A stretch of DNA of 64,000 bases from Candidatus Omnitrophota bacterium (GCA_963662715.1 OY759724.1:3293845-3357844); one strand, 5' to 3'. Shown: positions 38,371 through 43,992, counted from the stretch's first letter. Notes: generated by a model not told the origin, from the letters alone. Program-made: numbers and translations.

Positions 38371-39891
38371 TTAAGATAGTTTGGGAGCTTTGCCAATCAT
38401 ATAAAAATCCGAAGGCTTTGTCTTGTCATAAGATCCCTCCAGCACACCCTCCACCCCGTCCAACAATTCATCAATATGCACATACGCCCCCTTTTTCCCT
38501 GTAAAAACTTCACTGACATGAAACGGTTGCGTCATAAAGTTCAACAGACGTTGGGCACGGCCGTAGACCATACGGTCTTCCTTGTTTAATTCCTCGACCC
38601 CGATAACGGCGACAATTCTTTTCAGTCCGTTATATTTATTAAAATGCTGAATACACTGCTGGGCGATATTAAAATGCCGCTCCCCGATGACAAAAGGATC
38701 CAGGTTCCCGCAGGAACTCTGCAAAGGATCAATAGCCGGATACATCCCGCGCTGGACCAATTCACGGGACAAGACAATAGACCCGTCCAAATAACTAAAA
38801 ATGGCGACAACAGCCGGGTCGGTCATATCGTCGGCCGGAACGTAAACAGCCTGCAAGGCCGTTACCGAACCGCCCCCCGCCACGGAACGGATCCGTTCCT
38901 GTACACCGCTTACCTCGGAAGCCAAGGTGGGCTGATATCCCGTTTCCGCGGGAACCCGGCCTAACAGCGTTGAAACCTCCTGCCCCCCCTGGATAAAACG
39001 GTAAAGATTATCCATAAACAACAACACGTCCTTATTTTTGGACTGAAGGTACTCGGCCAGGGCAATGCCCGTGTTAACGACTTCCGCCCGTGCCCCGGGA
39101 GGCTGGTCCATCTGCCCGTAGGCCAGCATGACATTATTCAACAAACCGCTCTCGAGCAATTCATAATAAAGCTCGTTCCCTTCCCTGATGCGCTCCCCGA
39201 TACCCGCAAAAACACAGGCCCCGCCGTGTTCCTTAACAATATTATTAATCAGTTCCAGGATAACAACCGTTTTCCCGCATCCGGCCCCGCCGATGATTCC
39301 GGTCTTGCTTCCTTTGACGAGCGGATATAACAAATCTATAAACTTGATTCCGGTTTCCAGAACCTGCGGTTTCGCCGCTTCCTTCTGCGTTAAATCAAAA
39401 CCCATCGCCTGCTTTAAGACCCTGACAGGGGCAGGAGGCGCGTCAATAGGGCCTTTTTTATCGATCGGATTGCCGACCGCGTCCATAATCCGCCCGAAAC
39501 AGGCATCGCCGATAGGGACGGAAATGGGCTGGAAAGTATTATAACAGGGCTGGTTGAGCTGCAGATCAAGCGTATCCATCAATGAAACAGTACGGACAAG
39601 CTTTTTCCCCAAATGTTCCGCCGTCTGCAGAACGATCCTTTTTTTCTGAAAATTCCAGGCTTCAATAACATCATAAAGGGCCGGGATGTCCTCAGGATTA
39701 TCAAAAGACACATCAACGACCGGGCCCTGGACAGCGACAACCCGGCCCATCCCCCGGCGTTTTGTTGACCGGCCTGGAGGGGCATCCTTTCCGGCATCTT
39801 CTCCCTGACTGTCCGCCTGCTCCGACGGGTCTTGCGGGGGGGACAATTCTTCCGGCTCTTTCTCTTCTGAAGATGCATCGTGTTCGCTCAC
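38371..39891 (-). CDS. atpD: F1 ATP synthase beta subunit with a ~50-aa acidic N-terminal extension (506 aa)
   Basis: Walker A ([10 protein letters not shown]) and ...[39 protein letters not shown]... match the F1 beta subunit. Confidence 0.9.
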
Positions 39892-39919
39892 ATGATTCTC
39901 CTTGGAATAAACACCAAAA

Positions 39920-40771
39920 TTAACGTTTAGTCATCATACGGGAGGTGAAAATTTCCCGCATACCCTTATCAATATCTCCCTTCTTGGCCTTTGTAAAAGC
40001 TGCCGCGATCCCTTTTTTGTCCTTTTTCATTTTCTGCACGCTTGCCTCCAGCTGCTGTGATTGAGCGGCCGCTTCCGAAATGGACGTGTCATGAAGAACT
40101 TCGTAAATACGGCAGACAAGCCACATGTCAGCTAAATAACCGATAATATCAACCGGATCGGATTCCAAGATGACCGATTCAATAGCGTCCACAAATTCGG
40201 CTTGTTTAATCAACAACTCGTCGCAGGGCAGAAGCTTAACGCTGCGCGGCTTCTGCAGGTTAAAAGTCTTGGACCAGGGATAAACGACGATGACTTTTCC
40301 CAAACGGTCTTCCATGACTTCCTGAATCAGAAAATCCTTTATGCGGATAGCGATCTCGTAAAGGCCGACCTCTTCCAGATCCGTAAAGGTCTTCATATCA
40401 GGCTGGACTTTAGCCAATTTTTCCGCGCCTTTCTTTCCTACGATGATAAGCTCCCCCTGGGGATGGCGTTCTTTTTCCGCCATGATGGCCCGTACGGTCT
40501 TGGCGTTCAAATCCCCCATGAACCCCGCTTCGGAGGTAATACCCAGCACCCCGACTTTGGGATTGTCATTGGACACGAGCGGATGCCGGACGGTAGCGAG
40601 ACTGATCATGCGGAAAAATTCAACGAAAGACTCCCCGAAACGGGCAAACCGGTCCTTCCTGCTGGCCAGTTCATGAAATTTCGTGTCCGCGACATCTTTA
40701 AGGACCTGAATGATCTCAACCAGTTCTGTAATGTCCTCTAAATCGCTCTTGATTTTATTCGCCTTGCCCAT
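39920..40771 (-). CDS. atpG: F1 ATP synthase gamma subunit (divergent), 283 aa
   Basis: The N-terminal helix pattern ([29 protein letters not shown]) and its position between the b/delta gene and beta support the call. The C-terminus is atypical. Confidence 0.55.
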
Positions 40772-40783
40772 AGCCTTTCATCC

Positions 40784-42027: not shown

Positions 42028-42097
42028 AACACAACTCCTTTTTCATCATTGTATTCAGAAAGCACGGATAGTCCGGCTATAACATGTTTCCTCTCGG

Positions 42098-42430
42098 CTA
42101 AAGGTGATGGACTTCATCATCCGAATCCGTAAGGATATCTTGATCTTTCTTCCCTTTCTTTGGACGGAAGCGTTCAATTTCTTCAACAAGCACAATGCAA
42201 TCGTTGGCGAAAAACTTAAGAATTCCGAACTTGATAGGCACGGCTTCCCGCCAATTGATGATGATATTACTTTGATTTAAGATTCCCAGGACCGGATAAT
42301 GATACGGCAATAATTCGTATTCTCCGGTGTCCCCGGAGAAAAAAACACTTTCAACCTCTCCCTGGTAAAGCAGAGCCTCGGGTGTCATAATGGAAATTTT
42401 AAATGTCGGACGGTAAGTCGTGCCGGCCAT
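42098..42430 (-). CDS. atpC: ATP synthase epsilon subunit (beta-sandwich domain only; C-terminal helices absent), 110 aa
   Basis: The sequence FKISIMTPEALLYQGEVESVFFSGDTGEYELLPYHYPVLGILNQSNII fits the epsilon N-terminal domain consensus. Confidence 0.55.
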   Translation of the reverse strand: MAGTTYRPTFKISIMTPEALLYQGEVESVFFSGDTGEYELLPYHYPVLGILNQSNIIINWREAVPIKFGILKFFANDCIVLVEEIERFRPKKGKKDQDILTDSDDEVHHL

Positions 42431-42447
42431 AAGCCCAAGGAATCTCC

Positions 42448-43992
42448 TTATTCTTTTTTCTTTGATGTGGCGCGGTCTAAAACATCAACGCCCACATTAC
42501 TGCTGTCCTCATCTGATTCAAACGACTCTTTCGGCCGTTTCGCGATGAGCTCTTCCAAATACTCGGCCAAAAGGTCATCCAGGATTTTCTTCATCTCGTC
42601 ATCCAGATCCCGTTTCGCACGCATTGTTTTTAAAAGTTCTTCATTCTTCCTCTTCACGTAGTCATAAATATCATCCTGAAAAGCGATAACTTCTTCAATC
42701 ATCATCTCATGTAAAACACGCTTATTGTAGGCATAAAGGATAATCACCAAAGACTCCATCGGAACAGGTTTCCCGGGGCCCTGTTTCAGCAACTCTGTCA
42801 AAATGCTCCCGGTCTTTAACTGCTGTTCAGCTTCTTCAGATTGACCGGATGTTTTCAACTTCGAGACACGCAAAACTTCCCGGTACTGCAGATACTCCAA
42901 ACGTAAAGGTCCGCTTAACTTCTTGATGATAGGCCACTGGACTTTACTTCCGACCCGGGAAACAGAAAGCCCCAGGTCAACCGCCGGTTTTTGTCCTTCA
43001 CCAAAAAGCGGAGCGCTGACCATGATTTGCCCGTCCGTCATAGAGACCAAGTTCGACTGAACGTATCCGGTAAGGTCTCCCTCGAGTGTTTCGACAATCG
43101 GCAAATGCGTCATAGACCCGCCGCCATGGTCTTTCGACAAATATGCTGCTCTTTCAACGAGTTTGGAATGTAGATAGAAAATATCCCCCGGGTAGGAATC
43201 ACGGCCCGGAGCGCGTTCCAACAGCAGGGAAATTTCCCGATAGGCCCAGGCATGTTTCGTAAAGTCATCAAAAACGACGAATACATCTTTCCCCTGGTTC
43301 ATAAAATATTCTCCGATCGCACAGGCAATGTAGGGGGCGAGGTACAACTGTCCCGGAGGCGCCGCTGCCGTAGCGGAAATAATACATGTATACTTAAAAC
43401 AATCTTTATCTAAAAAAAGCTGAACGACCTTCCCCAAGGAAGATTGGGCCTTACCGATACAGCAATAAACGCAAATAACCCCCGTATGTCTTTGGTTAAT
43501 AATCGCATCGGTGCCGATCGTCGTTTTCCCGGTCATTTTATCTCCGAGGATCAACTCCCTCTGCCCAAAACCTATCGGGATCATGGAGTCAATAACTTTG
43601 ATCCCCGTTTCAAGTGTTTTTTCCAAGATTCCACGCTGTAAGATGGAAGGGGCATCAATGAAAATCTGAGTATTCTTATTCGGTTTAAGCGGACCCAGCC
43701 CATCCATCGGTTCTCCCAGGGGATTAATGATGCGTCCGATGTAATTATCACCCACAGGAGTCGTAAAAGGCTCCAAAGTCGCCTTGGCTTTATCCCCGGT
43801 TTTTAACTGAGATTGCTGCCGGATGATGAGAACCTGGGCTTCATCCTCAGAAAAACCGATAATAACACCTAACGTGCCATATCCGAAACGGATGACCTGA
43901 CCGTTAATACAGTTCTTAAACCCTTCCACAATAACGATACAGCCCCGAATGACACGGATGGTTCCTTCTTCAGAGTACTTTAAATCACCCAT
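42448..43992 (-). CDS. atpA: F1 ATP synthase alpha subunit with an extended charged C-terminus (514 aa)
   Basis: Walker A (GDKMTGKTTIGTDAIINQ) and the alpha-type central domain are present. Confidence 0.85.
   Translation of the reverse strand: MGDLKYSEEGTIRVIRGCIVIVEGFKNCINGQVIRFGYGTLGVIIGFSEDEAQVLIIRQQSQLKTGDKAKATLEPFTTPVGDNYIGRIINPLGEPMDGLGPLKPNKNTQIFIDAPSILQRGILEKTLETGIKVIDSMIPIGFGQRELILGDKMTGKTTIGTDAIINQRHTGVICVYCCIGKAQSSLGKVVQLFLDKDCFKYTCIISATAAAPPGQLYLAPYIACAIGEYFMNQGKDVFVVFDDFTKHAWAYREISLLLERAPGRDSYPGDIFYLHSKLVERAAYLSKDHGGGSMTHLPIVETLEGDLTGYVQSNLVSMTDGQIMVSAPLFGEGQKPAVDLGLSVSRVGSKVQWPIIKKLSGPLRLEYLQYREVLRVSKLKTSGQSEEAEQQLKTGSILTELLKQGPGKPVPMESLVIILYAYNKRVLHEMMIEEVIAFQDDIYDYVKRKNEELLKTMRAKRDLDDEMKKILDDLLAEYLEELIAKRPKESFESDEDSSNVGVDVLDRATSKKKE

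Follow-up and report, generated by a model that had tools for sequence, protein, structure and literature searches.

What is the role of an F-type ATPase whose operon encodes the catalytic, stalk, and proteolipid subunits and has no gene for subunit a? This question is raised by a 64,000-nucleotide (nt) stretch of DNA from a Candidatus Omnitrophota bacterium (GCA_963662715.1, OY759724.1:3293845–3357844; hereafter the window), which on its minus strand, at positions 38371–43992, carries seven consecutive open reading frames (ORFs) in the order alpha-epsilon-c-c'-b/delta-gamma-beta, separated by spacers of 12–70 nt. We lean, with moderate confidence, toward the answer that these genes encode a motor that is ATP-driven and non-chemiosmotic and transmits force through the inner membrane to a pseudopilus/giant-protein apparatus, and not an ATP synthase. 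A motor is the likelier reading because subunit a is absent and because the locus always lies between the gene for a giant protein and genes for secretion or pilus components.

Profile searches identify the first of the seven genes (42448–43992) as encoding an F1 alpha-like subunit (PF00006 and PF00306; TIGR00962, 518.9 bits) and the last (38371–39891) as encoding an F1 beta-like catalytic subunit (TIGR01039, 534.4 bits), and both scores exceed the curated equivalog cut-offs of 484.45 and 462.85 bits, respectively. Between them, on the same strand, lie genes for a 110-residue epsilon subunit (42098–42430), in which only the N-terminal sandwich is recognized (PF02823, residues 10–84); two proteolipids, c, here called c1 (41806–42027; 73 residues; PF00137, 32 bits with a cut-off of 24), and c', here called c2 (41560–41787; 75 residues), a two-helix protein with no Pfam match by itself; a 252-residue b/delta peripheral-stalk protein (40784–41542; PF00213 at 50 bits and a sub-threshold match to PF00430 at 26 bits); and a 283-residue gamma subunit (39920–40771; PF00231, 93 bits, residues 5–276). 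The accessory subunits, unlike alpha and beta, fall below their equivalog cut-offs (gamma, 75 against 194 bits; epsilon, 40 against 67; c, 22 against 44; delta, 36 against 57.5; and b, 28.6 against 65.5). The family of subunit a (PF00119, ATP-synt_A) has no match among all non-antisense ORFs of at least 110 residues in the window, and the only multispanning protein of the cluster is the platform protein GspF, with three transmembrane (TM) segments by hydrophobic-segment prediction. Downstream, 33 nt separate beta from a gene for a GspE-type ATPase on the same strand, the first of a set of genes resembling those of type II secretion systems (T2SS), and spacers within the larger unit range from 12 to 103 nt. 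Because a scan for terminators and promoters gave no signal above that of shuffled sequences, including at the beta–GspE junction, we base operon continuity on spacing and synteny. A preliminary description of this DNA had proposed the same inventory and gene order, the lack of atpB in or beside the operon, and contiguity with the T2SS-like genes, and on all of these points our searches agree with it: no a gene lies just outside the operon, and the two small ORFs taken for c subunits do not turn out to be something else.

The same arrangement recurs throughout a family of loci. A scan of species-representative genomes yielded 53 related loci, all 53 from Omnitrophota metagenome-assembled genomes (MAGs), including MAGs of Aceula (L030 and L034) and Zapsychrus and some whose records are titled "uncultured Planctomycetales." Wherever the flank is long enough for order to be judged, which applies equally to PilO at its end, the order is invariant: giant protein, p460, alpha, epsilon, c1, c2, b/delta, gamma, and beta, followed by GspE, GspF, a peptidase (not always present), GspG, minor pseudopilins, GspK, PilM/N, and PilO. 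It remains unchanged down to a gamma identity of 47% (gamma identities across the Omnitrophota loci are 47–92%), and it is seen again on a 397-kb NCBI contig when genes called independently and their precomputed Pfam marks are used. None of the approximately 50 related loci has an a gene, or a slot for one, in the cluster. Given that one invariant order holds across these loci, we regard the a-less composition as a fixed property of the family, and, as judged from gene order, the ATPase genes are the middle of a larger conserved unit composed of the giant protein, p460, the ATPase, and the T2SS-like genes. Among the best 120 matches to gamma, homologs are 69–100% identical, and those that are named are Omnitrophota. 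Gamma orthologs with 70–92% identity were also observed in records labeled Bathyarchaeia archaeon or "uncultured Planctomycetales"; these are probably mis-binned or default-labeled Omnitrophota contigs.

In alignments, beta retains the P-loop and the motifs GERIREGNE and DDMTDPA, and alpha retains SVSRVG; we take these to be the P-loop, the catalytic Glu-Arg region, and the arginine finger of F1 enzymes. Since the catalytic motifs of both chains are intact, the alpha3beta3 head looks catalytically competent. The termini of both chains are altered. Beta has an N-terminal extension of 47 residues, with AAGGAG located 6 nt 5' of its GTG start, and such an extension is found in 48 of 48 homologs, where its sequence is variable and either acidic or rich in proline. 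Alpha lacks approximately 20–27 N-terminal residues, its start aligning with the equivalent of canonical residue 22–31, and ends in a C-terminal extension of approximately 35 residues whose final motif, (N/Q)VGVDxLDxATSKK, is kept in nearly all loci. In all 46 aligned homologs, epsilon consists of the N-terminal beta-sandwich and a short charged tail, and the C-terminal helices are absent.

The N-terminal helix of alpha binds delta in canonical enzymes, and its loss fits the loss of the delta N-terminal domain from the stalk subunit. Matches to PF00430 and PF00213 are found in this subunit across the family. An AlphaFold2 model of it (predicted local distance difference test score [pLDDT] of 82) consists of a single helix spanning residues 4–140, then a short one, and a small alpha/beta domain, that is, a b-type TM helix, a continuous helix of approximately 135 residues, and the C-terminal domain of delta. 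In a fold search, the model matched best to mycobacterial b-delta and to the C-terminal domains of delta/OSCP, and V-ATPase subunit E, which resembles it in overall shape, was returned as well. The b-delta fusion named in the preliminary description is therefore right in that a delta sequence is fused to b, but it extends only to the C-terminal domain, given that delta profiles are restricted to residues 170–245 and the fold matches span 62–71 residues.

The membrane ring would be built from the proteolipid c1, possibly together with c2. Profiles made from 47 orthologs each identify c2 as a paralog of c1 (hhalign, 97.85%, E 6.7e-13, 71 columns), with the loop and the glutamate of helix 2 in register. 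When used to search the PDB, the c2 profile matched c subunits only, weakly, and the c1 profile matched c subunits (best E 1e-4) and, besides these, one chemokine receptor weakly. The c1 sequences have a mean column identity of 80%, with an invariant RNPS loop (RNPSAAS in the window) and three invariant residues at the two periplasmic ends (T6, F68, and Q69); the GxGxGxG packing motif present in the best-matching solved c subunit is missing. This RNP loop is the docking site of gamma and epsilon in canonical enzymes. The c2 sequences are far more variable (mean column identity of 51%) and keep a Pro-Cys pair in helix 1 and the loop. The helix-2 glutamate, which in alignments corresponds to the Glu/Asp of c subunits with solved structures, is found in 46 of 47 c1 sequences (Glu57) and in 44 of 47 c2 sequences (Glu58), in the latter as one of only eight columns conserved at 90% or more. 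It is replaced by Ile in c1 of locus L052 (6166–6375 of that locus) and, in c2, by Gln in L007 (8981–9190) and L048 (8760–8915) and by Met in L038 (5558–5719); at least one paralog in every examined genome retains it. As judged by alignment, the Na+ signature is absent from c1, which has Ile24 and Ala58 at the positions of Gln32 and Ser66 in the Ilyobacter motif, which we take as the reference. The preliminary description had called for a check of these Na+-binding residues; its other statements on the subunits, namely a long charged tail on alpha, an acidic extension on beta, an epsilon without C-terminal helices, and two distinct c paralogs that both keep the helix-2 carboxylate, are substantiated by the profiles, starts, and alignments given above.

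A partner for such a ring may be encoded by the gene that, in the related loci, always lies between the giant-protein gene and alpha. This protein, p460 (44096–45478, minus strand), has a predicted signal peptide and a C-terminal TM helix, matched no Pfam or NCBIfam family, and has 89 homologs, apparently all from Omnitrophota. In its AlphaFold2 model (pLDDT of 86.7), the signal-peptide helix is followed by two modules, each composed of an immunoglobulin-like sandwich and helical hairpins, and then by a 67-residue helix, the TM helix, and a short disordered cytoplasmic tail; the model has no fold match in the PDB at E<0.01. Conserved residues are distributed along the TM helix (T405, W406, F415, F419, T420, F424, W427, R430, and S431). 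We consider p460 the best candidate for a membrane or periplasmic partner of the ATPase.

Based on these features, we posit that the complex works in the direction of ATP hydrolysis. The alpha3beta3 head would turn or strain gamma-epsilon, which would dock on a membrane ring of c1 that possibly includes c2, and the head would be held by the single b-type helix bearing only the delta C-terminal domain. Because there is no subunit a, there would be no ion path, and the work would be transmitted mechanically over the inner membrane to a periplasmic recipient, presumably the bitopic p460, and from there to the T2SS-like pseudopilus and/or the giant repeat protein as the putative output. The motor reading draws on the fixed synteny and the competent head, on the loss of synthase parts (the alpha N-terminus, the delta N-terminal domain, and the epsilon C-terminal helices), on signs of new contacts (the C-terminal motif of alpha, the periplasmic-end residues of c1, and the TM residues of p460), and on the precedent of Mycoplasma together with the V-type ATPase reported for Aceula carriers of the cluster, both of which are discussed below. 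Two observations weigh against it. The membrane glutamate is kept at the frequencies given above even in the otherwise divergent c2, which speaks for the carboxylate having a role, possibly ion binding, for which a purely mechanical rotor would have no obvious need; and, by profile scores, alpha and beta are nearer to canonical F1 than to the Mycoplasma motors (G1 beta, 338 vs. approximately 450 bits).

How the force would cross the membrane can be put more specifically, and here we are considerably more hesitant. The complex may represent a distinct class of ATP-powered mechanical transducer in which a rotating c1/c2 ring hands its motion to p460, a type I membrane protein that would sit at the ring or within it, where Ac45/Voa1 are located in V-ATPases. 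Arranged in this way, the system might drive the periplasmic T2SS-like pseudopilus and/or a micrometer-scale repeat fiber acting on host or prey cells, and it could be a living intermediate between FoF1 and the F1-like X0 motors of Mycoplasma; we regard this whole proposal as tentative and, on balance, doubtful.

The retained carboxylate leads directly to a rival explanation, in which the c1/c2 ring takes up H+ at its glutamate and acts against a stator that has no homology to subunit a, such as GspF, the p460 TM helix, or c2, so that the complex either pumps ions or is driven by them. We think such ion coupling unlikely. It would account for the near invariance of the glutamate in c1, for its specific retention in the divergent c2, and for its presence at least once in every examined genome, and a conserved His and a conserved Arg near the cytoplasmic end of the p460 TM helix also speak for it; as a lead only, PulF, a GspF homolog of a T2SS, is reported as an ion channel (PMC10790770). 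However, none of c2, the b TM helix, and p460 shows a conserved intramembrane Arg, the glutamate has been lost from c1 in one locus and from c2 in three, and there is no Na+ signature.

Less probable again is an ATPase for export or assembly, resembling the FliI/FliH/FliJ components of type III secretion systems (T3SS), that energizes or gates export of the giant protein. The complexes of F1 and of the T3SS ATPase share ancestry, the giant protein is always adjacent and has neither a predicted signal peptide nor a predicted TM helix, and the b/delta subunit is weakly similar to HrpE/YscL (E 0.008). A heterohexameric head with distinct alpha and beta chains, accompanied by a full-length gamma, an epsilon, and proteolipids, argues against this assignment, as do the scores of the FliI/SctN models, which at approximately 90–190 bits are far below cut-offs of approximately 380–715, and the lack of any export-gate homolog in the cluster; we rejected a T3SS ATPase identity on the scores and the alpha/beta pair.

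We give very little credence to an ordinary energy-converting F1Fo enzyme whose a gene lies elsewhere in the genome and whose adjacency to the T2SS-like genes is incidental. In its favor, alpha and beta exceed the NCBI atpA and atpD equivalog cut-offs, and public annotations name the subunits "F0F1 ATP synthase." Against it, approximately 50 loci never contain an a gene and always place the cluster within one larger unit; delta is without its N-terminal domain, alpha without its N-terminal helix, and epsilon without its C-terminal helices; gamma, epsilon, c, b, and delta are far under their equivalog cut-offs; a V-type ATPase is reported for Aceula; and V-type subunits are tabulated in the KEGG Orthology (KO) entry described below.

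If the mechanical motor is real, the mycoplasmas are not the only lineage in which rotary ATPases have become mechanical engines of cell-surface machines, the Omnitrophota being a second and unrelated one, and since the proteolipids and the stalk are still recognizable, such a motor's membrane half becomes open to dissection. It would also offer a natural test of an F-type c-ring that lacks subunit a, both for retention of the carboxylate and for the passage of torque or strain across a membrane without ion flow. The giant proteins, the T2SS-like loci, and the "incomplete ATP synthases" of KEGG-style surveys are joined by this locus in one Omnitrophota unit, and metabolic reconstructions that count these alpha and beta subunits as ATP synthase are probably misleading.

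The giant protein, at the far side of p460, comprises 6144 residues (45511–63945, minus strand) and is composed of approximately 420 copies of a 13-residue "GINW" repeat followed by a C-terminal helical domain of approximately 300 residues; a signal peptide is not predicted in it, nor is a TM helix. At the DNA level, the repeat has a period of 39 nt with super-periods of 78 and 117 nt. Directly upstream of p460, 36 loci have both the conserved repeat and the conserved C-terminal domain, and many related contigs break inside the giant gene. Matches of the protein to the Pfam families Lysostaphin_N and Ntox33 were discounted as artefacts of repeat periodicity, and long plus-strand ORFs over the gene (e.g., 46325–47479 and 47804–49639) were set aside as antisense repeat artefacts.

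On the other side of the ATPase genes, all on the minus strand, are genes for an assembly ATPase of the GspE/PilB type that carries an MshEN domain at its N-terminus and a PilZ domain at its C-terminus (36121–38337), a multispanning GspF/PilC platform protein identified by profile match (34875–36086), and a Peptidase_MA_2-like metalloprotease that is absent from some related loci (33997–34857). These are followed by pseudopilin genes (31419–34042) encoding a GspG-type major pseudopilin, GspI-like and possibly GspJ-like minor pseudopilins, and a GspK-like protein, and then by genes (24954–31393) for a fused PilM-PilN, a PilO/GspM-like protein that bears a long extension, a protein resembling a tetratricopeptide-repeat lipoprotein, and a 510-residue protein. 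No secretin was recognized among the cluster genes. Both MshEN and PilZ are domain families annotated as binding the second messenger cyclic di-GMP, and their presence in GspE hints at second-messenger control of the whole unit. The PilO/GspM-like gene with its extension spans 27617–29851, and the segment 28001–30000 is GC-rich (0.61), with strong skew and long overlapping ORFs on both strands, which suggests low-complexity coding sequence. A gene for an 852-residue oligosaccharyltransferase of the STT3/PglB type (22380–24938, plus strand) adjoins the far end of the pseudopilus cluster.

The remainder of the window contains several other features. A 2771-residue RHS/teneurin-like protein is encoded at 1641–9956 (minus strand) and contains YD-shell, NHL, TTR, and FN-plug domains, a small ORF lies just downstream of it (1167–1628, minus strand), and the first 2 kb of the window have a markedly low GC content of 0.36. 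A gene for a CitMHS-type transporter is apparently split into an N-terminal part (18144–18911, minus strand) and a C-terminal part (15102–15575, minus strand), and the approximately 2.5 kb between them include a DDE transposase gene (16449–18044, plus strand) and two small ORFs, such that we suspect an insertion sequence, for which no terminal inverted repeats were found. The sole Rfam/ARAGORN match in the window is a tRNA-Lys(CTT) at 14784–14859 (minus strand), and the Rfam scan of the window returned no riboswitch.

The locus is of a published kind. Many Omnitrophota encode a non-respiratory homolog of F-type ATPases beside type-4a pilus clusters, located within 10 kb of such a cluster on 57 of 66 contigs, and Seymour et al. 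(2023; PMC10066038), who arrived at this view from the phylogeny of alpha and from co-location, named the enzyme "symbiotic" and related its alpha subunit to the type 2/3 enzymes of Mycoplasma. The same study found giant ORFs to be common in Omnitrophota genomes and treated the genera Zapsychrus and Aceula, and its supplement describes Aceula spp. as encoding a V-type ATPase (PMC10066038); two Aceula species with this reported V-type ATPase carry the cluster analyzed here. Given the same phylum and the same direct adjacency of F-type alpha and beta genes to genes for type IV filaments (type-4a pilus/T2SS-like), we take our locus to be one of these "symbiotic," non-respiratory F-type ATPases. 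The main text of that study nowhere uses "subunit a," "subunit c," or "proton," and its supplement uses neither "subunit c" nor atpB (PMC10066038); therefore, the missing a, the two proteolipids, the b-delta protein, p460, and the giant-p460-ATPase order are not described there. In a published KO table, one entry (id 221) lists K02111 and K02112 as its only F-type subunits beside the V-type K02123 and K02124, and, according to a 2026 preprint, alpha and beta are present in most complete Omnitrophota genomes, but the threshold for gamma is not reached, which was read as incomplete F1Fo; we attribute that failure to the divergence of gamma. When we searched the literature for an a-less F-type operon that has proteolipids and is tied to secretion or pili, we found only Seymour et al. 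and the Mycoplasma work. In the searchable literature, we did not find the anatomy described here, namely c and c' without a, b joined to the delta C-terminal domain, and an alpha without its N-terminal helix, nor the conserved tail motif of alpha, a p460 partner, or a fixed linkage to a GINW giant protein. The preliminary description had framed the operon as a rearranged or early-branching ATP synthase, and this framing is unsupported because the a-less order is fixed in approximately 50 loci within a larger unit, because Aceula has a reported V-type ATPase, and because the literature classes these enzymes as non-respiratory and "symbiotic" (PMC10066038).

With respect to other rotary ATPases, a V/A-type assignment was rejected on model scores. 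The N-ATPases, to which the preliminary description had also pointed, resemble the locus in having no separate delta gene and, weakly, in their long b subunit (TIGR03321, E 3.7e-9). Their operon, the subject of work by Dibrova and colleagues in 2010, reportedly has the order atpDCQRBEFAG and includes a, AtpQ, and AtpR. We rejected the N-ATPase reading given that the "alternate F1F0" models score far below their cut-offs (alpha, 474 against 750.5 bits; beta, 465 against 752; gamma, 18 against 282; b, 37 against 225) and that none of the hallmarks of that group (a, AtpQ, AtpR, and the Na+ signature) is present, the only extra small membrane gene being c'. The stalk subunit is like mycobacterial b-delta and V/A-ATPase subunit E in its long helix and C-terminal alpha/beta domain; however, the mycobacterial b-delta chains have 327–445 residues compared with 252 here, and the match is limited to 62–70 residues of the C-terminal domain.

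In comparison with canonical bacterial F1Fo enzymes, the alpha/beta core is approximately 55–60% identical and has all catalytic motifs, and gamma, the epsilon sandwich, a c hairpin with an RNP loop and a helix-2 glutamate, and the b helix are all present, whereas a, the delta N-terminal domain, the alpha N-terminal helix, the epsilon C-terminal helices, and the GxGxGxG motif in c1 are absent; two c paralogs, a different gene order, and co-operonic secretion genes further set the locus apart. The top family matches of the accessory proteins are canonical F1Fo subunits, with no Mycoplasma F1-like accessory family among the best 25 matches for each protein, and alpha and beta fall below the cut-offs of the Mycoplasma models (for alpha, MMOB1660, 398.5 against 600 bits, and MSC_0619, 304.4 against 520; for beta, MMOB1670, 412.1 against 850, and MSC_0618, 391.6 against 570).

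The Mycoplasma enzymes are the precedent for the motor that we favor. Type 2 and Type 3 F1-like X0 ATPases drive gliding (Type 2, G1) and antibody cleavage by the MIB-MIP system (Type 3) (PMC3369863, PMC12994834, PMC11864180). Like the complex proposed here, they combine F1-like alpha, beta, gamma, and epsilon subunits without an a subunit and serve a surface machine and not bioenergetics; their alpha likewise has no N-terminal helix, and the gene directly before it encodes a protein that has a signal peptide and, at its C-terminus, TM segments, a topology and gene position also observed for p460. The two differ in the membrane half. The cluster has no 12-TM protein, its maximum being the three TM segments of GspF, and no family matching the "Protein 1" or the small "Protein 2" of Mycoplasma was found; whereas the Mycoplasma X0 portion consists of that 12-TM protein and a small cytoplasmic protein and has no homolog of c, b, or delta, the Omnitrophota complex has a recognizable c1, c2, and b-delta.

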